Assembly (NCBI GenBank): GCA_028715415.1
Contig: JAQURX010000006.1
Location: forward strand, 8,505 to 72,504
Direction: 5' to 3'
Length of the DNA: 64,000 nt
DNA from: Candidatus Omnitrophota bacterium
GTDB lineage: Bacteria; Omnitrophota; Gorgyraeia; Gygaellales; Profunditerraquicolaceae
Shown: positions 3,205-57,832 of the stretch, one piece after another
How the letters are laid out: each line of letters begins with the position of its first letter
How positions within the stretch are numbered: position 1 is the first letter of the stretch
Position numbers and translations under genes: made by a program
The notes under the pieces: model-generated
The model's input: the letters and a program-made list of their open reading frames with translations, nothing else
What the model was told of the DNA's origin: nothing
Databases searched by the model: none

Positions 3205-4695
3205 ATGAAACGAATACTTATTTTGATTATAGGAATTGCTATTTTCCTGAGTGGCTGTACTATGGCTCCGAAGTATAAGAAGCCGCAAGCTCCGATTTCC
3301 AGCAATTGGCCTACAGGGGATGCTTATTCTACAGACAAACAGGCAGCTAATGTTAAGGATGTTACTAAATTAAAATGGCGAGAATTTTTTACTGATCCGA
3401 GATTGCAAACGATTATTCAGACGGCTATACATAATAACCGAGACCTGCGGCTTGCTGTTTTGAATGTTGAAAAGGCACGGGCATTATACGGAATTTCGTG
3501 GTCTAAGTTGTTGCCGGTTGTTGATGCCGATGCAGGGTATAGTAAGCAAAAATATTCTTCTGATTTTGTGGCCGCGGGAACTCCGGATACAATCAAACAA
3601 TATAGCGCTAATTTAGGCATAGCTGCTTGGGAGATTGATTTTTTCGGCCGTATTCGTAGCCTTAGTAAGCAGGCATTGGAAGATTATTTTGCTACAGAGG
3701 AGGCCCGTCGCAGCGCGCAGATTACGCTTTTGTCTGAAGTTGCCAGAGCGTATATGATTATTGCTGCAGACCGGGAGAATCTTAAATTAGCTCAGTCCAC
3801 ACTTGAGGCGCAGAAAGGCGTATATAATTTAGTATTGCAAAAATATAAACTTAATCTTGTAAATGAAATTGATTTACAGCGGTCCAGAACCCAGGTGGAT
3901 ACTGCTATGGGAGATGTCGTGCTTTACACGCAACAGTTAGCAAAGGATCAAAACGCGTTAAATCTTCTGGCTGGTTCTGTAGTGCCGGAAAATCTATTGC
4001 CTGCTGGCTTGACAGAAATTACTCCGCTTACCGATATTTTCCCCGGGCTATCTTCCGAGGTATTGCTTAGGCGCCCGGATATTATAAGTGCGGAACACAA
4101 ATTAAAAGGCGCCTATGCTAATATTGGGGCAGCCCGTGCTGCTTTTTTCCCTACTATTTCACTTACAACTACTCTTGGTTCGGCAAGCAATCAATTCTCT
4201 GGTTTATTCTCAGGCGGTAGGGGTACGTGGAGCTATGCGCCACAAGTTGTGATGCCAATTTTTGATCCAAGTATATGGTTTGCATATAGAGTTAGTGAAA
4301 CGTCTCGCAAAATAGCACTGGCTCAATATGAAAAAACCATTCAAACAGCCTTCAAGGAAGTAGCTGATGTCCTTGCTGTGCAAGGCACAGTTAACCAGCA
4401 AATAGTGTTGCAGCAATCTATGGTTGATTCCGCGCAGAAAGTTTATACCCTTTCAAGCAAGCGCTATACAAATGGAATTGATAGCTACTTGAGTGTTCTT
4501 GATGCGCAGCGATCGCTTTACAGGGCACAGCGGGAGCTCATCCTCATGCAGTTATCCAAGTTGGTTAACGAGGTAAAGGCTTATGCGGTATTGGGTGGAG
4601 GAGGATTGGATGATACGGTTGAGCAGAGGCGGGATAACCGTGGTTCCTTTGAGGAAAAGATTCTTTCATTGTTAGATCAAAAGTTTAGAAAATAG
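3205..4695 (+). CDS. RND efflux outer-membrane factor lipoprotein (NodT/OprM family)
   Basis: ATG lies 2 nt after the pump stop codon. Signal peptide with lipobox LSGC. 496 aa with the two-repeat TolC-like layout of this family. Confidence 0.85.
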   Translation: MKRILILIIGIAIFLSGCTMAPKYKKPQAPISSNWPTGDAYSTDKQAANVKDVTKLKWREFFTDPRLQTIIQTAIHNNRDLRLAVLNVEKARALYGISWSKLLPVVDADAGYSKQKYSSDFVAAGTPDTIKQYSANLGIAAWEIDFFGRIRSLSKQALEDYFATEEARRSAQITLLSEVARAYMIIAADRENLKLAQSTLEAQKGVYNLVLQKYKLNLVNEIDLQRSRTQVDTAMGDVVLYTQQLAKDQNALNLLAGSVVPENLLPAGLTEITPLTDIFPGLSSEVLLRRPDIISAEHKLKGAYANIGAARAAFFPTISLTTTLGSASNQFSGLFSGGRGTWSYAPQVVMPIFDPSIWFAYRVSETSRKIALAQYEKTIQTAFKEVADVLAVQGTVNQQIVLQQSMVDSAQKVYTLSSKRYTNGIDSYLSVLDAQRSLYRAQRELILMQLSKLVNEVKAYAVLGGGGLDDTVEQRRDNRGSFEEKILSLLDQKFRK

Positions 4696-4716: not shown

Positions 4717-4744
4717 TTGACAAACGGTGGATTTGTGATATACT
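4717..4744 (+). promoter_or_regulatory. sigma70-type promoter for cspA (TTGACA, 16 nt spacer, TGaTATACT extended -10)
   Basis: Read directly from the sequence. Sits about 210 nt upstream of the cspA ATG. Confidence 0.45.
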
Positions 4745-4772
4745 AAATAAAGTAAAAGTTTAGAAGTCTTAG

Positions 4773-4807
4773 CCGTAAGGACAGGATATCTGACCTTGCG
4801 GTTTTTT
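4773..4807 (+). promoter_or_regulatory. Terminator-like hairpin plus U6 inside the long cspA 5' leader
   Basis: CCGTAAGGACA/TGACCTTGCGG stem with a G.U pair, followed by TTTTTT. Further GC-rich stems lie at about 4845-4900. Confidence 0.4.
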
Positions 4808-4957
4808 GTTTGTCATTGTTTGTCTAGCTGGGAATCTAAGAATTCGAAGCGGCACCTCGCCTTAAAGGATAGGCGGGTGCGCCCTGTCCGGGCAGGTGAA
4901 GATGATGTGTAGATGTCTAGCAGTTTACTAAATTTCGAGAAAAGGAGGTAACAAACA

Positions 4958-19504: not shown

Positions 19505-20494
19505 ATGTTACTTAGAGTAAAATTGTTTGTGTTAATGGTCTTATGTGTTCCTTTATTGGCTTCTGCAGCAGATGCCGATATTAGTGCTGTTGAAACAAAA
19601 GAACAGTCTTCAGCCGGGCCTTTTAAAAGCTTTACTCAGACATTCAAATCAAATGGAGGGTATTTAGATTTGGGGATGCGTTTTGGGTATATCTATGGGC
19701 AGAATTCATACGATATGAATCACCATGTTAGCGAACTCGAGTTTCCTTTTAGGACATACATGGGGGGCGGAAAAATTAATATAGGTTATAAAGATTTATC
19801 AATCAATGCTGAGGCTTGGTCATCTTTGTTTGATGATCCAAGTGCCGGATGGCATACTAAAGATAAAGATTGGGATTCTGCAGGGAACTTGGAATCTGAT
19901 ACTAAATCGTATTCGGATATGAATGCAATTATCTGGGATTTAAGTATGCGTTATAATCTTCTTAAATTTTCTTTTGGTAAGAAGAGTTCCGCAGAGGAAT
20001 GTAAAAGATCCGAAAATATAAAATTAGGGTTCTTGATGGGGTATCGTTTTGAAAGGTTCGGTTATAAAGACTATGGCTTGTATCAGACAAATGGTTCTGA
20101 CAGTAGTTATGGAGATGGTGAGTTGGTTTCTGAATATAAAGTAAAATATAATTTGCCTTATTTTGGTTTGGCTATGGATGTTGGCAATGAAAAAATGGGC
20201 GTTCAAATGAATGCAAAATATGGTTTTAAGCCTCACGCCAAGGATTATGATAACCATTATTTAAGAAAGCTCAACTTTTATGCGGATTACAAAAAGAAGC
20301 CGAATGTCTTTATGGCTAATTTTGTCCTCTTTTATAAATTTCTTAAAAATTGGGAAGCAAACTTAGGTGCTGATGCTGCTCTTATCAGGATGGATGGAAG
20401 GACTTGGGAGAATAGCTCTTCTAATTGGGATTTAGACCAAAGCATAGATACCAAGCAGTTTATTTACTGGATGGGAGTGGGGTACAAGTTTTAA
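19505..20494 (+). CDS. Omptin-family outer-membrane aspartyl protease (peptidase A26-like)
   Basis: Signal peptide. KDKDWDS aligns with the OmpT D83/D85 pair (VDQDWMDS). LGFLMGYRFERFGY aligns with LGLMAGYQESRYSF, YKVKYNLPYFGL with YKQRFKMPYIGL, and YDNHY with the D210/H212 pair. C-terminal ..GYKF. The alignment is from memory. Confidence 0.65.
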   Translation: MLLRVKLFVLMVLCVPLLASAADADISAVETKEQSSAGPFKSFTQTFKSNGGYLDLGMRFGYIYGQNSYDMNHHVSELEFPFRTYMGGGKINIGYKDLSINAEAWSSLFDDPSAGWHTKDKDWDSAGNLESDTKSYSDMNAIIWDLSMRYNLLKFSFGKKSSAEECKRSENIKLGFLMGYRFERFGYKDYGLYQTNGSDSSYGDGELVSEYKVKYNLPYFGLAMDVGNEKMGVQMNAKYGFKPHAKDYDNHYLRKLNFYADYKKKPNVFMANFVLFYKFLKNWEANLGADAALIRMDGRTWENSSSNWDLDQSIDTKQFIYWMGVGYKF

Positions 20495-20522
20495 CAGGAA
20501 GTAAAGAAGAATAGTTGTAATA

Positions 20523-20561
20523 AAAGCATTGGGAGAGTATAATACTTTCTCAATGCTTTTA
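20523..20561 (+). terminator. Probable terminator
   Basis: AAAGCATTGGGAGAG ... CTTTCTCAATGCTTT hairpin followed by TTTT. Confidence 0.4.
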
Positions 20562-20576
20562 TAGAAAAGAGAAGAG

Positions 20577-24092: not shown

Positions 24093-25195
24093 AACATATG
24101 AATAATAAATTTGATAAAATTGAGAGGTTATTAGGAAGAATTTTTATTTCCATTATTGCCGTTGTTATTGTCTTTACTTTTTGTGAAATACTAGCAAGGG
24201 TTAGGTTTAGTTCTTATCCGATAATGGAAAGATTCTCTTCTGCCTACTTAACTCTTAAGCCATACGTAATGGTTGGTTGTACTAAGAACATACAAATAGA
24301 AGATAATGAGTATTTGAACAGCTTAGGCTATAGAGGTAAGCTTCCGGAAAAAGAAAAAAAGCCCGGGGAATATAGAATATTTATGCTTGGGGGGTCAACG
24401 GTATTTGAAGGTAAACCGCCCATTCCAGCTCTTTTAGAAAACGAGTTTAAAAAGTCCGGTTTTAAGGGCGTTAATGTTTATAACTTTGGAATAATTGCCG
24501 GGGCATCTTCTCAGGAATTAGCTTCAATTCTTTTTGAGATATCTGATTTTAAGCCGGATTTAATAATCATGTATGACGGAAATAACGACATGAATATATC
24601 TAAGGGTTTTGATCCCCGTCCAGGGTATCCTTTTAATTTCTTGGTTTATGAGAATAATCCGTTGATAAAAGATAATTTAAAAGGTTATCCTGCTTTTACT
24701 TATTTTATCTTTGGCAGCACATTATTGAGGCATTCATTTCCTTCTTATTTTGTGCACACTCTTGTCCCTCTGGATAAATTAAGAAAGCAGGTTAATTATC
24801 TTTCTTCTGAATGGAAGGATGCTATTGTGACTACATATGTTAATAATTTGATAAAAGCAGAAAAGGTCTCCGGTGCTTTTGGGGCAGATTTTATTGCTTT
24901 TTTTCAACCCACGCTTGCCTTTAAAAATATTCTTTCTCCTAATGAAAAGAAGAATTCTGAAGTGGAAGATCGACTTTTTGAATTTGATATGCGCAAAAGA
25001 TTATTTTTAGAACTAAAAAATAATAATTTTGGTAAATTAATAGACTTAAGTGATATCTATAAAGATTATCCTGATTGGGTTTTTACTGATACGGTTCATA
25101 CCCGTCAGGAAGCAAAGCAGTTAGTCACAAAAGAGATTTATAAACACGTTTTACCGTTAATTGAAAAAACAGTCAAACCAGATTCTGGCGGATGA
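24077..25195 (+). CDS. Membrane-anchored SGNH/GDSL-family hydrolase
   Basis: N-terminal TM. Block I MLGGSTV, block III YDGNNDM (GxND) and block V DTVHT (DxxH). Confidence 0.6.
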   Translation: MCNGLKHMNNKFDKIERLLGRIFISIIAVVIVFTFCEILARVRFSSYPIMERFSSAYLTLKPYVMVGCTKNIQIEDNEYLNSLGYRGKLPEKEKKPGEYRIFMLGGSTVFEGKPPIPALLENEFKKSGFKGVNVYNFGIIAGASSQELASILFEISDFKPDLIIMYDGNNDMNISKGFDPRPGYPFNFLVYENNPLIKDNLKGYPAFTYFIFGSTLLRHSFPSYFVHTLVPLDKLRKQVNYLSSEWKDAIVTTYVNNLIKAEKVSGAFGADFIAFFQPTLAFKNILSPNEKKNSEVEDRLFEFDMRKRLFLELKNNNFGKLIDLSDIYKDYPDWVFTDTVHTRQEAKQLVTKEIYKHVLPLIEKTVKPDSGG

Positions 25196-26445
25196 AATTT
25201 AAAAAATCTATTATTTTTTTAGGATTTATTCTTTTACCTGTATCCGTAAATGCACAGGATATGCATATGGCTCATGGAATGAAGCCGATGTTAAGTTTTT
25301 ATGGAAGCTATCCTGAAACTCGCGAGGCAAGCGGGACAAGCTGGCAGCCGGAGACTTCTCCAATGGAAGGCAAGCATTTTGTCTCTCATGATTGGAATAT
25401 TATGTTACACGGTTATGTGTTTGGGATTTACGATAATCAGGGAGGCAAGAGGGGGAAAGATAAGGGTTTTAGCTCTAGCATGTTTATGTTGATGGCTGAT
25501 AGAAAATTAGGGCCCGGAACATTTGGATATCGCAGTATGTATTCGCTTGATCCTTTGATGGGAAAGAAGGGGTACCCTTTGTTATTCCAGACTGGAGAAA
25601 CTTATGATGGAATTCATCCTTTGATAGATCGCCAGCATCCGCACGATTTTTTTATGGAGGAGGCTTTGACATATAGTTTGCCGCTTTCCGGGGAAAATTC
25701 TTTGTTTGGATATTTTGGCTTACCTGGTGAGCCGGCATTAGGCCCACCTGCTTTTATGCATCGTTTTTCAGCGATGGATAATCCTGAAGCGCCGCTCGGG
25801 CATCATTGGCTGGATTCAACGCATATTACTTACGGAGTTATTACTTTTGGATGTATTTTAGATAAGTTTAAGATGGAAGGTTCTGCTTTTCGAGGAAGAG
25901 AGCCTAATGAAAATCGCTGGGATATTGAATCACCTAAATTTGATTCATATTCTGGTAGAGTTACATTTAACCCCGACAAGAATCTGTCTTTTCAGGCAAG
26001 CTATGGTTATCTGGACAGTCCGGAGCAGCTTGAGCCAAATATAAATGTCGGAAGAGTTACGGTTTCTGCGATGTATAACCGTAATTTTCAAGATGGAAAC
26101 TGGCAGACTACATTTGCCTGGGGGCGTAATGATAAGAAGCCAGGCCTTGCTACGAACGCATTTTTACTTGAGTCCGCAATCAAATTTCTGGAATCACATA
26201 CAATCTTTAGTCGATTTGAATATGTTGAAAAAGATGAGCTTTTTGAAGATGGTGAGCCGTTGGCAGGGAAAAGTTATGATGTTAAAAAGTTTTCCATAGG
26301 TTATATATATGATTTCTTAAGTTTAAAAGGTATTGATGCGGGTATAGGGAGTTCATTCAGTACGCATTTTATAGCAAGTAGTTTAGAAGATGTTTATTCG
26401 CATACTCCTAAATCTTTTTTAGTGTTTATTCGGGTTAAAATATAA
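25192..26445 (+). CDS. Exported His-rich hypothetical protein, possible beta-barrel
   Basis: Signal peptide. HMAHGM, HPLIDRQHPHDF and LGHHWLDSTH. Alternating hydrophobic beta-strand patterns in the C-terminal half. Confidence 0.5.
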   Translation: MKFKKSIIFLGFILLPVSVNAQDMHMAHGMKPMLSFYGSYPETREASGTSWQPETSPMEGKHFVSHDWNIMLHGYVFGIYDNQGGKRGKDKGFSSSMFMLMADRKLGPGTFGYRSMYSLDPLMGKKGYPLLFQTGETYDGIHPLIDRQHPHDFFMEEALTYSLPLSGENSLFGYFGLPGEPALGPPAFMHRFSAMDNPEAPLGHHWLDSTHITYGVITFGCILDKFKMEGSAFRGREPNENRWDIESPKFDSYSGRVTFNPDKNLSFQASYGYLDSPEQLEPNINVGRVTVSAMYNRNFQDGNWQTTFAWGRNDKKPGLATNAFLLESAIKFLESHTIFSRFEYVEKDELFEDGEPLAGKSYDVKKFSIGYIYDFLSLKGIDAGIGSSFSTHFIASSLEDVYSHTPKSFLVFIRVKI

Positions 26446-48545: not shown

Positions 48546-48593
48546 GAAATGCAGATTAGGAATTATAATTTGATTTCTACCGTTAAATAAACA

Positions 48594-48622
48594 TTGACAA
48601 GTTTTTCTTAAGCTGATAAAGT
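48594..48622 (+). promoter_or_regulatory. sigma70-type promoter (TTGACA, 17 nt spacer, TAAAGT) driving the riboswitch/btu-cob operon
   Basis: Sequence match only. Confidence 0.4.
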
Positions 48623-48635
48623 AGCAATTGACAAC

Positions 48636-48896
48636 TTGAGATTATAGGACAAGGGAAATCAGTAAATGCTGATGCGGTCCCGCCGCTGTAACCTAAGTAC
48701 TTTTTGAAAGAAAAGTAAACTTTTGGCAAGAGATAAAGCCACTGTCAAAAAATTTGATGGGAAGGTAAGCCAAAAGTGTTTAGGAAGCCAGAAGACCTGC
48801 CTATAAAAAAGTAACTCCTCGTGGAAAGGGCTAAGAATAATATTAGGGTGAAGCCTTTGATGACAAATTTAGTCGTCAGAGGCTTTCTTTTTTAAG
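48636..48896 (+). promoter_or_regulatory. Cobalamin (AdoCbl) riboswitch with terminator expression platform
   Basis: AAGGGAA, GCGGTCCCGCCGCTGTAA, GCCACTG, GGGAAGG and the B12 box AGCCAGAAGACCTGCC all present in the canonical order. GAAGCCTTTGATGAC ... GTCGTCAGAGGCTTT hairpin plus T6 at 48849-48896. Confidence 0.9.
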
Positions 48897-48918: not shown

Positions 48919-49755
48919 ATGAAGAAGCTATTAATATTATTGATTCCGTTGGTTTTTTTAGTATCAAAGGCACAAGCTGGAGAAAGATATATTTCTCTAG
49001 CGCCTTCAACAACAGAAATTCTTTTTGCGCTTGGCCTTGAATCAGAAATCGTTGGAGTAAGCACTTTTTGCAATTATCCTCCGGAGGCTAAGAATAAAGA
49101 AAAGGTAGGAGATTTTAGTTATCCTAATCTGGAAAAAATAGCTTCTTTAAATCCGGATTATGTTTTTTGCACCGGATTAGAACAGGCACCGGTTATTAAT
49201 GAATTAAAAAGGCTAAAATTAAATTTTTATGTTGCTGATCCGGTAAATATTCAGGAGCTTTTTGAAACGATTAACGATATCGGTAAAATTACGGGAAAGC
49301 ATAATGAAGCAGCTAAGCTGATTGAGAAAATGAAATCTGAAGTTGATGGGGTGATTGCTCAATCAAAGAATATCCCGCAGGAAAAGAGGCTCGGAGTTTT
49401 TGTTGAGATTTGGCATGAACCGCTTATGACCGCGGGGAAAGGCTCCTTAGTTGACGAATTAATTACGCTTGCAGGTGGAATTAATATTGCGCATGATGTA
49501 CCGCGGCCATATTGTATTTTTAGTGCTGAGAAAGTAATTAGTTTTAATCCCCAATGCATTATATTGGCTTACATGGATAAAGAATCCCCGATAAAACTTG
49601 TTGAATCGCGGTTTGGCTGGAAGAATATAGATGCTGTTAAGAATAAAAGAGTGTTTAATGACATTGACCCAGATTTATTCCTGCGGCCCGGCCCAAGGAT
49701 TACTATTGGCTTAAAAGCTTTGTTTAATAAATTATATCCCAATGAAAAAAATTAA
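48919..49755 (+). CDS. btuF: Periplasmic cobalamin/siderophore-type substrate-binding protein (BtuF-like)
   Basis: Signal peptide. 278 aa, class III SBP. Context: the riboswitch and cob genes. Confidence 0.8.
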   Translation: MKKLLILLIPLVFLVSKAQAGERYISLAPSTTEILFALGLESEIVGVSTFCNYPPEAKNKEKVGDFSYPNLEKIASLNPDYVFCTGLEQAPVINELKRLKLNFYVADPVNIQELFETINDIGKITGKHNEAAKLIEKMKSEVDGVIAQSKNIPQEKRLGVFVEIWHEPLMTAGKGSLVDELITLAGGINIAHDVPRPYCIFSAEKVISFNPQCIILAYMDKESPIKLVESRFGWKNIDAVKNKRVFNDIDPDLFLRPGPRITIGLKALFNKLYPNEKN

Positions 49756-50698
49756 ATTAAAATTCAGCATTATTTTCTTGTTTCTAATATTGGTTATTGT
49801 AATTATCCTTGGTTTAGTTAAAGGCGCGGTGGATATCCCGTTAACCAAGTTATTGTTTAAGGAGAATCAAGCTATTTTGAACATGCGTTTATTGCGGGTT
49901 TTAACAGCGCTTCTTGTGGGAAGCGGACTTGCTGTCTCGGGGATTGCTTTACAGGCAGTTTTAAGGAACCCTTTGGCAGAGCCATATCTGTTGGGCACTT
50001 CAAGTGGAGCGGGCCTTGCTGCAGTGATTGCGGTTATTTTGGGGATTTCAAGAATCTATATGCCTTTAGCTGCTTTTTTGGGGGCAGTTGTAAGTATAGT
50101 AATTGTCTATAATCTGGCAAGCGAAGGCAAGAGAATCTCCAGCAATTCTTTAATCCTTTCCGGAGTGATTATCTCTATAGCATTTTCCGCGGTTATCGTT
50201 TTTCTTGTTTCAATATTCGGTAATGAGGCTATGCATGAGGTGTCTTGGTGGCTCTGGGGAAGTTTACAGGTCTATGATTATAAATTAATCCTTTTAGTTT
50301 CTTTTCCGGTGTTATTGGGGATAGCTGCGATTTACTTCTTTGCTCAGGATTTAAACGCAATCAGCATGGGCGAAGAAGAGGCAATGCATCTTGGTATAGA
50401 TGCGCAAAATATAAAGAAGATTTTAATTTTGATAACTGCTTTGATAACTGCAAGCTTGATTTGTATATGCGGGATTATCGGTTTTGTTGGTTTGATTGTC
50501 CCCCATATGATGCGTAGGGTTGTTGGGCCTAATCATAAGGTGCTTATCCCGATTACTTGTTTGGCTGCGGCGATTTTTATGGTTGTCTGCGACCTTTTGT
50601 CGCGGACTATTTTTGCTCCGATTGAAATTCCTATAGGAGTTATTACTGCTATCATCGGGACGCCTGTATTTGTTGTTTTGTTGAAGAAGAGAGTTTAA
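49742..50698 (+). CDS. btuC: FecCD-family ABC permease (BtuC-like)
   Basis: About 9-10 TM helices. Overlaps the btuF end. Confidence 0.85.
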   Translation: MKKIKLKFSIIFLFLILVIVIILGLVKGAVDIPLTKLLFKENQAILNMRLLRVLTALLVGSGLAVSGIALQAVLRNPLAEPYLLGTSSGAGLAAVIAVILGISRIYMPLAAFLGAVVSIVIVYNLASEGKRISSNSLILSGVIISIAFSAVIVFLVSIFGNEAMHEVSWWLWGSLQVYDYKLILLVSFPVLLGIAAIYFFAQDLNAISMGEEEAMHLGIDAQNIKKILILITALITASLICICGIIGFVGLIVPHMMRRVVGPNHKVLIPITCLAAAIFMVVCDLLSRTIFAPIEIPIGVITAIIGTPVFVVLLKKRV

Positions 50699-50706
50699 TA
50701 TTCATC

Positions 50707-50898
50707 TTAATGTTTCGGCATTTTTGCTGTAGGCGCATTAGAAAATTTTTGGCACAGCTATTAACATTAGTGCGCAAGGATTTACGAGCAGCGAAGGACA
50801 GCTATATAAGAACGCTAAGCCGTAGCGACGAAGTAAACCGCAGCGCACGGCAAAAATTTTCAGCGCCGGAAGCGAAAATGCCGAAACACAACATCAGT
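50707..50898. repeat. About 190-bp intergenic element bounded by 14-nt perfect inverted repeats (TGTTTCGGCATTTT / AAAATGCCGAAACA), MITE-like
   Basis: Inverted repeats at 50711-50724 and 50885-50898. Internal AGCGAAG-type motifs. Begins TTAATGTTTCGGCATTTTT, which resembles the ends of the element at 52811-53340. No credible ORF. Confidence 0.55.
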
Positions 50899-50906
50899 TT
50901 AATATT

Positions 50907-51707
50907 ATGGAATCTTTATTAAAAATTAAGAATCTTACCGGTGGATATTACAAAGAAGATATTGTCAGGGATATATCTTTGGAAGTTAACCGCCGTGATT
51001 TTGTAGGGATTATCGGGCCGAACGGAAGCGGGAAGACTACGCTTCTTAGGTTTGCAACAAGGATTCTGGCTCCAAGAAGCGGAGAGATTACTTTTGAAGA
51101 TAAAAACATCTTTGATATGAATTTAAAGGAATTCTGTCAAAAGGTCGCATTTGTTTCTCAGGATATTCCCATTGATTTCTCTTATAGCGTAATGGAGTTT
51201 GTGCTGATGGGAAGAATCCCGCATTTGCAACGCCTGCAGTTTGAGACAAAAAAAGATTTTGAGATTGTTCAAAACGCCCTTGAATTAACTGATGCGGTTT
51301 ATTTGAAAGATAAAAGAATTGATGAGTTAAGTTCAGGAGAACGCCAGCGTTTAATTATCGCAAGAGCGCTTGCGCAAGAACCAACCCTTTTATTCCTGGA
51401 TGAGCCGACATCGCATCTGGATATTGGACATCAGATACAGGTGTTAGATCTTTTAAAGAGGCTCAACCAGAAAAACAATTTAACAATTATAATTGTTTTG
51501 CATGATCTTAATCTTGCAAGTGCATATTGTAACCGTATTGTTCTGCTTGATAGCGGCAAAACTTTTAAAATTGGTCCTCCCGAAGAAGTGTTAACTTATC
51601 AGAATATCGAAGCAGTTTATAAAACAGTGGTTTTGGTAAACGATAACCCTTTGACACATAAACCAAATGTTGTTTTGGTGCCGGGAGATGTTAAACGTGG
51701 CAACTAA
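50907..51707 (+). CDS. btuD: ABC transporter ATPase (BtuD/FecE-like)
   Basis: Walker A GPNGSGKTT, LSSGERQR signature and Walker B LLFLDEPT. No SD upstream, since the element abuts the start. Confidence 0.85.
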   Translation: MESLLKIKNLTGGYYKEDIVRDISLEVNRRDFVGIIGPNGSGKTTLLRFATRILAPRSGEITFEDKNIFDMNLKEFCQKVAFVSQDIPIDFSYSVMEFVLMGRIPHLQRLQFETKKDFEIVQNALELTDAVYLKDKRIDELSSGERQRLIIARALAQEPTLLFLDEPTSHLDIGHQIQVLDLLKRLNQKNNLTIIIVLHDLNLASAYCNRIVLLDSGKTFKIGPPEEVLTYQNIEAVYKTVVLVNDNPLTHKPNVVLVPGDVKRGN

Positions 51708-52299: not shown

Positions 52300-52815
52300 A
52301 TGAGCAAAATTATTTTAATTTTAGGCGGGGCAAGGAGCGGAAAGAGCTCTTATGCTGTGAGTTTAGCGAAAAAGTTTAAAAAGATAGCTTTTGTTGCTAC
52401 ATGCGAAGGATTGGATAGGGAAATGAGAAAACGCATTGAGCTGCATAAGAAAGATAGGCCTAAAAATTGGAAGACTTATGAAGAGCCAAGAAATGTTTCA
52501 GAAGCAATAAAGAAAATTGACAATTCATTCGATTGTATCCTTATAGATTGCTTGACGCTTTTAGTTTCAAATTTAGTTTTAAATAAATTTAATCAGGAAA
52601 AAATCATTAAAGCAATTCAGGAGATGTTGGTTGATTTAAAGAAAAAGAAAGCAACTGTGATAATTGTTTCCAATGAAGTCGGATTAGGAATTGTCCCTGC
52701 AACTAAATTAGGAAGAGAGTTTCGTGATATAGCCGGCAGGGTTAATCAGGTTGTAGCAAAAGAAGCTGACAAAGTGTTCTTTACGGTTTCCGGAATAGCA
52801 ACATGTATTAAATGA
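52300..52815 (+). CDS. cobU: Adenosylcobinamide kinase / adenosylcobinamide-phosphate guanylyltransferase
   Basis: P-loop ILILGGARSGKSSYA. 171 aa, as for CobU/CobP. Confidence 0.85.
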   Translation: MSKIILILGGARSGKSSYAVSLAKKFKKIAFVATCEGLDREMRKRIELHKKDRPKNWKTYEEPRNVSEAIKKIDNSFDCILIDCLTLLVSNLVLNKFNQEKIIKAIQEMLVDLKKKKATVIIVSNEVGLGIVPATKLGREFRDIAGRVNQVVAKEADKVFFTVSGIATCIK

Positions 52816-53340
52816 ATCTGCCGTCTTTAAAGCTTGAATTTTAGTGTTTGCTTTCGGCGCTGAAAATTTTTGCCGTGTGTTCTTTAATGAATCTGTCGTT
52901 TTTCTCGCTCAGGTCGATTTTTTAACGGCAAAGGTCTCTCGTATTTTGGCGGCTGCTGAACTCGTCGCATTTGCTCTAGCAAATGCTCCTCGGACAGCAT
53001 CGCCGTCCCGATATTGTCCCGCCCTGTCGGTCGGGACATCGGGATTCCCAAAATACTCGAGCATGCTTTGCCTAAAATCGACATTCGCTCGAATAAGCGA
53101 CAGATTCATTTATAATAGTAAGAGTTTCAGCAGATGGCTTGGCTTTTGTTTTATCGGGGCCTCCGAGGATGCCGAGCGGGCACGGATGCCCAGCTAAATA
53201 GAAAGTAGGCAGAGCGAGGCACCGCAGGGGAGCGAAATTTTGCCTCGCAGGGGCAAAATAAGCGTCCCCGAGAAAACAAAAGACAAGACAGACGCGTAAG
53301 AAATAAGTTGAATTAATCAAGAAGAATAATAAATAGTCAA
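52811..53340. mobile_element. About 530-bp non-coding insert, noticeably G+C-richer than its flanks: three copies of AATGAATCTGYCG (two direct, one inverted) bounding a 226-bp unit with nested GC-rich hairpins, plus a second structured about 230-nt segment
   Basis: Motif copies at 52811-52828 (overlapping the cobU stop), 52885-52903 and inverted at 53097-53110. Hairpin TCCCGAT-att-GTCCCG-ccctgtcggt-CGGGAC-ATCGGGA at about 52999-53044. GCGAGG ... CCTCGC and GGGCA ... TGCCC stems at 53170-53270. No RBS-supported ORF. Confidence 0.5.
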
Positions 53341-53355
53341 AATATAGGAGATTAA

Positions 53356-54414
53356 ATGAAGGTAATTAATGAGATAATTTCAAATATAAGCGGTATTGAT
53401 CAAGAGTTGGTCAAGAAGACTCAAGCGAGATTAGATAACCTAACTAAGCCTCTTGGAAGCTTAGGCAGGTTAGAAGAATTAGCAAAACAGATTTGCGGGA
53501 TTACAGGTAAGGATTATCCGGTATTGGGGAATAAAGTTATTTTTACTCTTGCTGCTGATCATGGAGTTACTGATGAGGGAGTAAGCGCGTATCCAAAAGA
53601 AGTTACGGCACAGATGGTTTACAATTTTCTTGCAAATGGAGCAGCAATAAATGTTTTGGCAAACCATGTTGGTGCCCGCGTTGTGGTAGCTGATGTTGGA
53701 GTTGTAAGTGAGCTTAAGCCAAACCCAAGGTTACTAATTAAGAAAGTAAATAATGGCACTAAGAATATGGCAAAAGGCCCTGCTATGACAAAAGAAGAGG
53801 CGATCAAAGCAATAACTACCGGAATAGGAATATTTGAAGATGAATTTAAGCGCGGAGCAGACATAGTTGGAACAGGCGAGATGGGGATAGGGAACACTAC
53901 GGCAGCAAGTGCAATTACTGCTTGTTTTATAAAGCAGTCGATTGAAGAGATAACAGGCCGTGGTGCGGGCTTAGATGATAAAGGGTTAAAAAATAAAGTT
54001 GAAATCATTAAAAAAGCGCTTTTAGTAAACAAGCCTGATTCCAGTGACGCAATTGATGTTTTATCAAAGGTAGGAGGTTTTGAGATTGGAGGGCTTGTAG
54101 GAATAATTCTCGCTGCTTCTTCTAAAAAGATACCGATAGTAATTGATGGGTTTATTTCGGGAGCTGCCGCACTTATTGCTTATAAGCTTGAGCCTAAAGT
54201 TAAAGATTATATGATAGCTGCGCATAAATCAGTTGAAGGGGGGCATAGGTTTATTCTGGATTATATCGGATTAAAACCTCTCATTGATTTGGATTTAAGG
54301 TTAGGCGAGGGAACCGGAGGGGCGCTTGGTATAGGATTAGCTGATGCTGCAATCAAGATCCTTACTCAAATGGCGACCTTTGAAAGCGCTAATGTTTCCG
54401 AAAGGGGTAAGTAA
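53356..54414 (+). CDS. cobT: Nicotinate-nucleotide--dimethylbenzimidazole phosphoribosyltransferase
   Basis: 352 aa with GTGEMGIGNTT and the family-typical glycine-rich segments. AGGAG RBS. Confidence 0.88.
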   Translation: MKVINEIISNISGIDQELVKKTQARLDNLTKPLGSLGRLEELAKQICGITGKDYPVLGNKVIFTLAADHGVTDEGVSAYPKEVTAQMVYNFLANGAAINVLANHVGARVVVADVGVVSELKPNPRLLIKKVNNGTKNMAKGPAMTKEEAIKAITTGIGIFEDEFKRGADIVGTGEMGIGNTTAASAITACFIKQSIEEITGRGAGLDDKGLKNKVEIIKKALLVNKPDSSDAIDVLSKVGGFEIGGLVGIILAASSKKIPIVIDGFISGAAALIAYKLEPKVKDYMIAAHKSVEGGHRFILDYIGLKPLIDLDLRLGEGTGGALGIGLADAAIKILTQMATFESANVSERGK

Positions 54415-55831: not shown

Positions 55832-55981
55832 CTTTTTTTGAGAAGAAAAGCCGGATAGATGAAGGAAGTCTTGGTGTAAGCCCAAGCGCTGTCGCGCAAC
55901 GGTAAATCTCTTTTAGGGATAAGCCCGGTCGATCATCTATCATAAGGAAAGTACTCTCGCATGAAGAGAAAGGATTTAAGA

Positions 55982-57832
55982 ATGAAAAAATATTTAATAG
56001 CGCTGGTAGTGTCTTGCATTTTATCCCTCCCTGGTTATCTAAAGGCAGAAGATGTTAATCTAAATAAGATTGTTGTAACTGCTTCAAGGATTGAAGAGTC
56101 TTCCGGAGATATCGGACGCACTATTGATGTGGTCACTTCAAAGGATATAGAAAAAAGCGGGTCGCAAGACTTGGCAGACGCCATTACTAACCTTACTTCT
56201 GTTGATATAAGTAATTATGGCGGGCCTAATGCTACAAAGACAATTAGGATGCGAGGATCTACTGGTGCCCAGGTCCTAGTTTTGATGGACGGCAGGCCGA
56301 TAAATAATCCTAGGGATGGCGAAGTTGATTTTTCAACTATACCATTAGACAATGTATCCAGGGTTGAGGTCATGCATGGCCCCGGTTCAAGCCTATACGG
56401 AAGTTCTGCTATGGGAGGAGTGGTTAATATTATTACTAAGAATCCGCCTAGAGAAGGGCAGAAGGCTGAAATTTACTCTAGTTTTGGCACCCGCCGGACG
56501 TATATTGAACGTATGCTTTATGGGGCAAAGGCTCCAAAATTAGGCTTTCTTATCAGTGGAGGCTATCAAAGCTCTGAGGGTTTCCGTGAGAATTCCACGC
56601 TTAATGCCAAAGATTGCAATCTTAAATTAGGGTATGATTTAAACAGTGAAAATAATTTAAGCCTGAATTCCGGTTTTTATAAAAGCAGGGTGGGTGTGCC
56701 CTATAAGGTTTCTACTCCTGATTTAGAAGATAAGCAAAATACCTTGAATCGTTTTTTTGATTTTAGCTGGAATTTTAAGCCTGATACCAAGACTACTTTA
56801 TTAGCTAAGGTTTATCAGAATTATGATAGATTGGAATTTTTGGATTTTTCATCAGGCTATAGCAATAAAAGTATCCATGGAACCACGGTAAGAGGGGGAG
56901 ACTTACAGTTTGAAAAACAATTATTAGATTTATACCGTTTGGTCTGCGGGTTTAATTATGTCAAGAATATGAATGATAGTACTGCCACTGCAAAACATAA
57001 ATATGATGTTACGGCAGGGTATTTGCAGAACCATTTTGATCTTTTTGATAAACTAAAGATTAATTTGGGTGCCAGAATAGATAATTATTCTAACTTTGGC
57101 ACGCAATTTAACCCTAACCTCGATTTTCTTTATACCTTAAACGAAGCTATAAAACTGCATGGTTTAGTAAGCCGTTCATTCCGCGCCCCCACTTTTAATG
57201 ATTTATATTGGCCAAGGACAGATTACTATTACTATGGGTTTTGGGTTGGAGGAGAGGAAGGAGACCCGAATTTAAAGCCGGAAAAAGGGGTAACTGAAGA
57301 ACTCGGGGTTGAAACAAAATTAAATAAATATATCACTTCGGGTTTGACTTATTACCATAGCGATTATGACCAACTTATCCAGTGGTCAGATGATGGAAGC
57401 GGAATGTGGAGGCCACAGAATGTAAGCTCTGCTTCAATCAATGGTATAGAATTTGAAAACTTGGTAGATATTTCTGATAAGTTTGGATTGGGTATTAATT
57501 ATACATTTTTAATGGCAAGAGATAAGAAAACCCATAAGTACCTTGTCTACCAGCCAGAGAATAAAATTGACTCTTCTTTGAAGTATAATGACCATAATGG
57601 GCTGACTGCTGAACTAAAGAGCCAATTTACAGGCGTGAGATTTAATGATGCTAACAATACAGGTAAGGTAAAGAGTTTTTTTGTTTTGGGGCTAAATGTA
57701 TCAAAGAAGTTTAAGTCAGGCTTAACTTATTTTGCATACATAGATAATCTTTTAAACCGTAAATATCAGGTTCAATCTGGTTTTCCTATGCCCGGATTTT
57801 CCTTTACTGGTGGGGTTAAAGCCGAATTTTAG
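55982..57832 (+). CDS. btuB: TonB-dependent outer-membrane receptor (BtuB-like)
   Basis: AAAGGA RBS then ATG at 55982. Signal peptide. TonB-box-like NKIVVTASR. Plug plus 22-strand barrel length. C-terminal ..KAEF. Confidence 0.85.
   Translation: MKKYLIALVVSCILSLPGYLKAEDVNLNKIVVTASRIEESSGDIGRTIDVVTSKDIEKSGSQDLADAITNLTSVDISNYGGPNATKTIRMRGSTGAQVLVLMDGRPINNPRDGEVDFSTIPLDNVSRVEVMHGPGSSLYGSSAMGGVVNIITKNPPREGQKAEIYSSFGTRRTYIERMLYGAKAPKLGFLISGGYQSSEGFRENSTLNAKDCNLKLGYDLNSENNLSLNSGFYKSRVGVPYKVSTPDLEDKQNTLNRFFDFSWNFKPDTKTTLLAKVYQNYDRLEFLDFSSGYSNKSIHGTTVRGGDLQFEKQLLDLYRLVCGFNYVKNMNDSTATAKHKYDVTAGYLQNHFDLFDKLKINLGARIDNYSNFGTQFNPNLDFLYTLNEAIKLHGLVSRSFRAPTFNDLYWPRTDYYYYGFWVGGEEGDPNLKPEKGVTEELGVETKLNKYITSGLTYYHSDYDQLIQWSDDGSGMWRPQNVSSASINGIEFENLVDISDKFGLGINYTFLMARDKKTHKYLVYQPENKIDSSLKYNDHNGLTAELKSQFTGVRFNDANNTGKVKSFFVLGLNVSKKFKSGLTYFAYIDNLLNRKYQVQSGFPMPGFSFTGGVKAEF

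Follow-up and report, generated by a model that had tools for sequence, protein, structure and literature searches.

Among the small repeats described in bacteria, ERIC, the enterobacterial repetitive intergenic consensus, is an imperfect palindrome of 127 bp that lies in transcribed intergenic regions of operons in either orientation, with a core conserved across genera, locations that differ, and size variants produced by internal inserts at fixed points. Correia elements carry inverted repeats of ~26 bp, sites for integration host factor (IHF) and a TA duplication. Prokaryotic MITEs (miniature inverted-repeat transposable elements) have been described as sequences of <500 bp that have terminal inverted repeats (TIRs) of 4-30 bp between direct repeats, target AT-rich intergenic DNA and give rise to stable stem-loop transcripts, in a source that also covers the features of ERIC (PMC10969869); one of them, QMITE2 of Coxiella, is depicted with direct repeats of 7-9 bp, TIRs of 23-29 bp and a core of 113-145 bp (PMC10969869). 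The Correia elements (CREE/NEMIS) of Neisseria are small inverted-repeat sequences that sit beside genes and share their transcripts, with RNase III cutting the RNA hairpin and altering the expression of neighbours (PMC2649163; PMC10969869), and Correia ends form promoters (PMC2649163). Here we describe element A, a 193-bp hairpin repeat located between btuC and btuD in a B12 operon of a Candidatus Omnitrophota bacterium (assembly GCA_028715415.1, contig JAQURX010000006.1, positions 8,505 to 72,504); this whole stretch of 64,000 nucleotides is referred to as the window. Our analysis indicates that element A is probably a copy of a non-autonomous, hairpin-forming interspersed Omnitrophota repeat of the MITE/ERIC kind. 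The family is previously undescribed, and the kind of small selfish DNA that it represents is well known.

Element A and its insertion between btuC and btuD

The btuC-btuD spacer of 208 nt folds as a single long hairpin (-71.3 kcal/mol, z = -6.99, with 0 of 200 shuffles as good), the opposite strand giving a weaker fold (-66.9 kcal/mol), and the profile of the family that we describe below (nhmmer) spans 50709-50889 of the window at E = 2e-47. At the base of this hairpin, TGTTTCGGCATTTT (50711-50724) is perfectly complementary over 14 nt to AAAATGCCGAAACA (50875-50888), which bears out the perfect terminal inverted repeat reported in the initial annotation of this DNA. The inverted repeat reaches 26 nt at 85% (50711-50736 / 50863-50888) and is the longest within 600 nt in the whole 64-kb window. 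The hairpin base is located 12 nt past the btuC stop codon (50696-50698), in keeping with the earlier description of an element just after btuC, and the inverted repeat ends 18 nt before the btuD ATG (50907), i.e., twice the 9 nt given there. The ends of element A read TGTTTCGGC / GCCGAAACA, its hairpin spans ~178 nt, and 7-8 non-repeat nt lie between its terminal repeat and the flanking duplication. The features of this region are as follows:

50692-50702, plus strand: left copy of the target-site duplication, AGTTTAATATT, which holds the btuC stop TAA (50696-50698); 11/11 identity to the right copy
50703-50895, plus strand: element A, a 193-bp hairpin repeat between the duplication copies, defined by the family profile, the fold and the empty sites
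50710-50922, plus strand: 70-codon open reading frame (ORF) through the whole of element A, from 11 nt after the btuC stop to 13 nt past the btuD ATG
50711-50728, plus strand: 5′ arm of the basal stem P1, including the perfect 14-nt terminal repeat at 50711-50724 (fold, family alignment)
50732-50754, plus strand: 5′ subterminal box GGCGCATTAGAAAATTTTTGGCA, invariant in 9/9 aligned copies (alignment)
50755-50768, plus strand: optional 14-nt insert CAGCTATTAACATT, present on the 5′ side only (alignment)
50770-50848, plus strand: inner part of the hairpin, with P4 (GTGCGC, 50770-50775, paired with GCGCAC, 50843-50848), P5 (GG.TTTAC with GTAAACC), then internal loops rich in purines and a tip that varies (fold, alignment)
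50847-50867, plus strand: 3′ subterminal box ACGGCAAAAATTTTCAGCGCC, which pairs with the 5′ box and has an inverted copy at 52850-52877 (alignment)
50871-50888, plus strand: 3′ arm of P1, including the perfect repeat at 50875-50888 (fold, family alignment)
50896-50906, plus strand: right copy of AGTTTAATATT, ending at position -1 of the btuD ATG; 11/11 identity to the left copy

Element A is therefore small and lacks a transposase gene, in that its sole ORF, the 70-codon frame listed above, gave no match in a Pfam search. This frame is probably not a gene, and we rejected it as a feature of the family because, of 54 frames read through the family copies, only 2 are open. It could relay ribosomes into btuD, a post hoc idea that we treat as a curiosity.

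The evidence that element A arrived by insertion comes from its flanks and from the same junction in relatives. The 11-nt direct repeat AGTTTAATATT, which the initial annotation did not mention, lies on both sides of the element, and a shared word as long was obtained in only 41 of 20000 flank shuffles. Excising 50703-50906 leaves ...AAGAGAGTTTAATATT|ATGGAATCT..., in which the btuC TAA is followed by 4 nt and the btuD ATG. Our survey of empty sites covered the contigs encoding five BtuD relatives (72-76% identical), which provided eight places where the order of the genes is unchanged (L001, L002, L033, L034, L035, L036, L037 and one without DNA); the BtuD protein is identical within the pair L033/L034 and within the pair L035/L036. 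In all eight of these places, no spacer separates the FecCD gene from the ABC ATPase gene, the two either abutting or sharing 1 or 4 nt, so that the proposed check of whether relatives lack the insert at this junction came out in favor of an insertion in each case. The N-terminus of BtuD is conserved (MESLLKI in the window, MEALLKI in L001), and the btuD start codon has therefore not been shifted. Taken together, the duplication and the abutting genes in relatives demonstrate that the 204 bp between btuC and btuD are a lineage-specific insertion, i.e., the arrival of element A is a real insertion with an 11-bp target-site duplication. The next BtuD relatives are ~76% identical. Those with empty sites are only ~75% identical in BtuD, and the absence of the element in them is thus not a strain-level polymorphism.

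A dispersed family with a conserved hairpin

Scanning metagenome contigs with the exact shared 19-mer GGCAAAAATTTTCAGCGCC as the pattern identified 27 loci, of which 9 (L006, L019, L023, L024, L025, L028, L029, L031 and L032) contain full homologues of element A. These nine homologues are 76-82% identical to element A over ~157 nt, with nhmmer E-values of 1e-46 to 4e-54; in the remaining 18 loci the match extends hardly beyond the 19-mer (<= about 34 nt). All nine are intergenic, in host contigs of 38-49% GC, and they are located beside the following genes:

L032: purD and DUF1780
L006: DMT_6 and metF
L028: TPR and metF
L025: trpF and ribF
L024: tmk and cysS
L029: an ahpF-like gene
L023: a GIY-YIG gene
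L019 and L031: ORF6N genes

The family copies occur in both orientations relative to their neighbour genes, and in a ratio of 6:4 relative to GC skew. NCBI gives the name Candidatus Omnitrophica for proteins flanking L019, L028, L025 and L029, and since those flanking L019, L028 and L029 are found in a single NCBI accession series, at least three family copies appear to be present at different loci of one metagenome-assembled genome (MAG). The MITE-like spread suggested in the initial annotation is supported by the target duplication, the empty sites in relatives, and at least nine homologues in other contigs.

The alignment of the family, which comprises nine sequences, gives a consensus fold of one hairpin with 50 pairs. 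In this hairpin 96.1% of cells are paired and 16 pairs are changed on both sides, values that were reached in 0 of 500 shuffles; as a control, sliding the partner by 1-3 columns gave 36-46% paired cells and <=5 two-sided pairs. Covariation is found mostly in the basal stem, where 12 of the 18 P1 pairs are changed on both sides, and is also present in P4, which occurs as GTGCGC/GCGCAC, GTCGGC/GCCGAC and GTCTGC/GCAGAC with compensated CG, GC and UA switches in alignment columns 118-119 / 193-194. The hairpin is maintained through compensatory changes, and its structure is under selection. The basal stem TTTCGGCATT / AATGCCGAAA is specific to the window, most other copies having TTTATGGTT / AACCATAAA, and a recognisable terminal repeat, AAGCTTTATGG / CCATAAAGCT, is present in most copies. 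Two subterminal boxes, GGCGCATTAGAAAATTTTTGGCA and ACGGCAAAAATTTTCAGCGCC, are invariant; the invariance of ACGGCAAAAATTTTCAGCGCC is partly forced, in that 19 of its bases are the retrieval pattern, whereas GGCGCATTAGAAAATTTTTGGCA was free to vary. Size variants arise at a single point behind TTGGCA. An insert of 14-16 nt is found there in the window (CAGCTATTAACATT) and, as the related CTATTGAC type, in L019, L023 and L028; L031, L032, L006, L025 and L024 lack it, and L028 and L029 contain a further 48-nt hairpin.

One alternative is that element A functions primarily as a structured RNA or as a structure in single-stranded DNA, with a conserved core selected for an activity of its own (for example as a small RNA, as a scaffold that binds proteins or in the processing of mRNA), and that mobility is merely the route by which it spreads. 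We consider this unlikely. The compensatory changes that preserve the helix are in line with it, as are the stronger conservation of the core (subterminal boxes, P4/P5 and the loops) than of the termini and the identity of 76-82% that holds across contigs of such different GC content. In addition, in each of the nine copies the plus strand, whose internal loops GAGGAGCG / GCGACGAAG are rich in purines, folds more stably than its complement, by 5.5-14 kcal/mol. This strand asymmetry may, however, be plain inheritance from a common ancestor, and choosing the strand from the count of G-U pairs versus A-C mismatches was not decisive (8 versus 4), so that this count names no functional strand. The conservation of the 3′ box, as noted above, is partly forced by the retrieval pattern, the copies are of mixed orientation versus both flanking genes and GC skew, and no promoter, terminator or Rfam family is associated with the element: searches of Rfam with both the btuC-btuD and the cobU-cobT spacer, at the gathering and E <= 10 thresholds, returned only noise. 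ERIC has the same cross-genus conservation, and to our knowledge no RNA function of its own has been demonstrated, which we also count against a functional RNA. A narrower identity, that of a cis-regulatory RNA or riboswitch, was rejected because of the unrelated gene contexts, the mixed orientation and the lack of any Rfam match at E <= 10.

Target duplications can be read at two of the homologues. The L032 element (4361-4556, minus strand) is flanked by the 8-nt repeat AAGAATAT and sits between the purD ATG and its Shine-Dalgarno (SD) sequence; without the element the junction reads AGGAAAGAATATG, i.e., AGGAAAG, 5 nt and ATG, the normal SD-ATG spacing of purD. The L024 element (4726-4948) is flanked by the 7-nt repeat TATCATA, which contains the start codon of tmk (N-terminus MIKKGKFITF). 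The flanking duplication that is expected from published descriptions of MITEs is thus found at element A itself with 11/11 identity of AGTTTAATATT, and in weaker form in L032 and L024, where the duplications gain weight from the gene starts that they rebuild.

All four readable duplications in our data, including that of the cobU-cobT insertion described below, are located on or against a start codon: those of btuD (50896-50909), cobT (53351-53360), purD and tmk. This proximity may reflect a preference for AT-rich initiation regions or simply the survival of certain insertions in compact genomes. A bolder reading of the same four of four insertions, that A-type hairpins are “stealth” inserts aimed at translation start regions, is doubtful. 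Under it, the covarying hairpin would extrude from the mRNA and return the upstream stop codon or SD to the vicinity of the start codon, the ORF at 50710-50922 might act as a ribosome relay in the window copy, and mobilisation would read the structure, with its conserved core and variable termini, and not the terminal sequence.

Several loci of the family deserve mention in their own right. Upstream of metF, L006 (2584-2999) and L028 (4199-4521) both contain a composite of A and of the module B defined below, within a similar DMT_6...metF neighbourhood; they belong to different genomes and the A/B unit is oppositely oriented, which could be due to independent insertion at a hot spot or to inversion. 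The ORF6N genes of L019 (8030-8539) and L031 (1588-2103) are located immediately upstream of the element on the opposite strand and are 54% identical, and a fragment of Shedu SduA_C is present near the element in L031. The ORF6N family is very large, and its association with the element is not general, since three further Omnitrophota ORF6N proteins (five loci, L038-L042) were without A or the modules B and C. One of these loci, L042 (1-1452), is an Omnitrophota MAG contig that ends in a DUF772/DDE_Tnp_1 transposase gene beside the ORF6N gene; this DDE transposase was rejected as the mobilising enzyme because neither the window nor any locus carrying the element contains a relative of it.

The cobU-cobT spacer and the setting of the operon

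The spacer between cobU and cobT, in the same operon as element A, is a composite 534-bp insertion, separate from element A and not a second copy of it. Its features are as follows:

52807-52816, plus strand: left copy of the perfect 10-nt direct repeat ATTAAATGAA, which holds the cobU stop TGA (48 of 20000 shuffles)
52840-52879, minus strand: 40-nt fragment of an A-type 3′ arm, inverted versus element A (nhmmer E = 3e-7, profile 128-167)
52884-53112, plus strand: module B, an inverted-repeat element with 13-nt perfect ends AATGAATCTGTCG (52886-52898 / 53098-53110)
53125-53295, plus strand: module C, a conserved hairpin with the core GCCGAGCGGGCA..GCTAAA..GAGCGAGGC (arms 53135-53159 / 53266-53290)
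53351-53360, plus strand: right copy of ATTAAATGAA, perfect, which holds the cobT ATG (53356)

The duplication of ATTAAATGAA rebuilds the cobU stop and the cobT start alike, and the AGGAG before the cobT ATG comes from the right end of the composite insert. In L001, L002 and L037, cobU and cobT abut or overlap. In L035 (11990-13489) and L036 (8622-10121), a radical-SAM/SPASM gene and a 53-aa ORF are present between cobU and cobT, and from these extra genes it follows that this junction takes insertions repeatedly.

Examination of modules B and C, which are unrelated to A, demonstrated that they recur outside the window. The end motif of module B is AATGAATCTGYCG, a third copy of the module B end is present at 52811-52823 (3 matches versus 0.15 expected), and the 10-nt direct repeat overlaps this end motif by 5 nt. 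Arms resembling those of module B flank the A-type copies in L019, L023, L006, L028 and L029, and module C is ~70-74% identical to sequence beside the A copies of L025, L006 and L019. The order B-left, inverted A, B-right and C that is present in the window recurs in these same three loci amid unrelated genes; in the window composite, the inner ~130 nt of A are replaced by ~200 nt resembling L024 5021-5205.

These results qualify the initial annotation, which had taken the two spacers for members of one small element family. The 40-nt fragment of A, and the way in which B and C travel with A, make this claim partly right; the resemblance of the ends, on which it had been built, is at the level of chance. 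The proposed end motif TTAATG-N8-9-TTTTT has 2 matches in the window versus 0.86 expected, with two or more in 22 of 100 shuffles, and TTAATG is not conserved among the homologues of element A. The pairwise alignment that had been called for does recover a shared segment, in that 50846-50873 matches 52850-52877 in inverted orientation (28 nt, 96%; BLAST, E = 4e-8), the only other match to A in the window. The supposed AGCGAA..GCC likeness of the two elements was recovered by no alignment.

Both insertions are part of an operon with the following genes, identified by Pfam:

48919-49755: btuF-like gene, Peripla_BP_2
49742-50698: btuC, FecCD, with the stop TAA at 50696-50698
50907-51707: btuD, ABC_tran, with the ATG at 50907
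after btuD: cobC, His_Phos_1
52300-52815: cobU, CobU, with the stop TGA
53356-54414: cobT, DBI_PRT, with the ATG at 53356
after cobT: cobS, CobS

A cobalamin riboswitch (48593-48818, 65.6 bits) is located upstream of btuF, and a second B12 riboswitch, of the adenosylcobalamin (AdoCbl) type (55836-55980, 53.2 bits), is located upstream of another ORF (55961-57832). In its longest form the cobC ORF shares 41 nt with btuD (51667-51707), versus an overlap of 4 nt in relatives, and cobC probably starts downstream of the first start codon. The initial annotation was right that btuD has no SD, and this does not set the gene apart: a strict SD is present in only 16 of the 40 long ORFs of the window, and btuD is one of the 24 without. 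Further inverted repeats of the window include a near-perfect palindrome with 21-nt arms (20520-20562), just after an ORF ending at 20494, and an AT-rich 24-nt pair that is 157 nt apart (25015-25219).

Relation to known repeats and probable effect on the operon

Like prokaryotic MITEs such as QMITE2 and MIC231 of Bacillus cereus, element A is small, has no transposase gene, and has TIRs and direct repeats, and the layout of QMITE2 in particular is very close to it. In behaviour it is closest to ERIC, which it resembles in being an imperfect palindrome in a transcribed spacer, in occurring in either orientation, in being conserved across genera at differing locations, and in its internal inserts (14-16 nt, and 48 nt, after TTGGCA). 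It differs from ERIC in the lack of any sequence match in Escherichia coli genomes (5,426 complete genomes, blastn E <= 0.01), in its occurrence in another phylum, and in its long 11-bp duplication. For the effect on the btu message, Correia elements may be the best functional analogy; unlike them, element A has an 11-bp duplication and unrelated ends, and no promoter-like or terminator-like site was found on its plus strand. Its features as a whole match the published description of prokaryotic MITEs (PMC10969869; PMC11602168). The fixed order of modules in the window recalls the bacterial interspersed mosaic elements (BIMEs) of enterobacteria, which combine repetitive extragenic palindromic (REP) sequences with other motifs. 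REP units are 20-40 bp (PMC3733652); the modules of the present mosaic measure 170-230 bp, and all of it lies within a 10-nt direct repeat as if it were one moving unit.

Two other identities were considered and rejected. Palindrome-associated transposable elements (PATEs), derived from IS200/IS605, have subterminal hairpins and neither terminal inverted repeats nor a target duplication, and a PATE is ruled out here by the single long hairpin together with the 11-bp duplication. Integron attC sites, which are 57-141 nt long with RYYYAAC ... GTTRRRY boxes, occur between gene cassettes near an integrase gene; the ends TGTTTCGGC / GCCGAAACA, the hairpin of ~178 nt, the conserved B12 operon and the lack of an integrase nearby exclude this identity. 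Searches for element A in plasmid and phage records in distant mode gave no match, a search of viral contigs with the invariant 23-mer gave 0 matches, and a literature search for Omnitrophota repeats or MITEs found no paper.

A number of observations weigh against a non-autonomous repeat of the MITE/ERIC kind. The empty-site relatives are distant (~75% BtuD identity). The exact 19-mer retrieval yields a small sample that is biased to close relatives and in which conservation is partly forced, and the 64-kb window itself contains only one full copy of A and one 40-nt fragment. Scanning species-representative genomes, one per species, with the window's own ends (GTTTCGGCATT-N130-160-AATGCCGAAAC) gave only three matches, which were rejected as chance, since they are inside coding sequence, in unrelated phyla, and without wider similarity. 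Taken alone, the 8-nt and 7-nt duplications of L032 and L024 are weak, being reached in 800 and 2077 of 20000 shuffles. In contrast to MITEs, element A has no known parent insertion sequence, and neither an autonomous partner element nor a transposase gene was found beside any copy. Also unlike MITEs, its duplications vary in length from 7 to 11 bp, 2 to about 20 nt of non-conserved sequence separate the hairpin base from the duplication, and across the family the core is better conserved than the termini, a combination that is atypical for a transposase that recognises terminal repeats.

This combination is what a second alternative is built on, namely that element A is mobile without a classical terminal-repeat transposase, moving by way of its structure or of a copy intermediate, for example if the folded hairpin is recognised as single-stranded DNA, or if microhomology or reverse transcription primes the insertion. 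Duplications of 7, 8, 10 and 11 bp, the non-conserved nt next to them, and a conserved, covarying inner structure in place of conserved termini would all agree with such a mechanism, and the 5-nt overlap of the 10-nt repeat with the end of module B suggests homology between element end and target. We nevertheless regard it as improbable: no reverse transcriptase, HUH nuclease or integrase gene is present beside any copy, there is no A-rich tail, most copies have the recognisable terminal repeat AAGCTTTATGG / CCATAAAGCT, and mechanisms of the IS200/IS605 and integron attC types are not known to leave a target duplication. The last alternative, that element A and the cobU-cobT spacer form a B12-specific cis-regulatory RNA module of the operon, as the initial annotation had offered under the name of a shared regulatory RNA module, has in its favor two insert-bearing junctions 2.1 kb apart in one riboswitch-controlled operon, the shared 28-nt segment and the lack of a further copy in the other 60 kb of the window, but is close to refuted, as none of the relatives' operons examined contains the element at the same junctions, its homologues are located in both orientations beside purD, metF, trpF/ribF, tmk/cysS, ahpF-like, ORF6N and GIY-YIG genes, none of them B12-related, no Rfam family matches, and the operon already has its cobalamin riboswitch at 48593-48818.

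Returning to a non-autonomous repeat of the MITE/ERIC kind, the following course of events would account for the locus. Before insertion, the sequence of the btuC-btuD junction would have been ...AGAGTTTAATATTATGG..., in which 4 nt lie between the TAA and the ATG; a trans-acting enzyme would have made a staggered cut, and repair would have duplicated 11 bp. The left copy of the duplication retains the btuC stop and the right copy the native sequence upstream of the btuD ATG, and because stop and start context are both retained, btuC and btuD are left intact. We infer transposition by a transposase with 7-11-bp staggered cuts. Duplications of 10-12 bp are typical of IS4-type elements, and an IS4-like enzyme would be a guess from the duplication length only.

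Since its sense strand has neither a consensus promoter nor an intrinsic terminator, element A is most likely transcribed within the riboswitch-controlled btuF-btuC-btuD-cobC-cobU-cobT-cobS message, from which it would extrude as a hairpin of ~56 bp over a span of 178 nt. By analogy with Correia elements and ERIC, it might loosen the translational coupling of btuC and btuD or provide a target for a double-stranded RNase. For the operon, the consequences are probably neutral or mildly modulating, and small on balance.

The presence of this family implies that Omnitrophota, an uncultivated phylum, has its own families of small palindromic mobile repeats, and that such repeats can enter tight operon junctions without the loss of genes, because a long target duplication rebuilds the stop and the start. 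In annotation, the long spacers of btuC-btuD and cobU-cobT should be treated as insertions, and not as regulatory regions or small genes. Modules A, B and C could be used as markers to type strains and to detect recent genome change in Omnitrophota MAGs, and the start-proximal insertions provide a natural test case for how a hairpin of ~190 nt is tolerated between the ribosome-binding context and the ATG.

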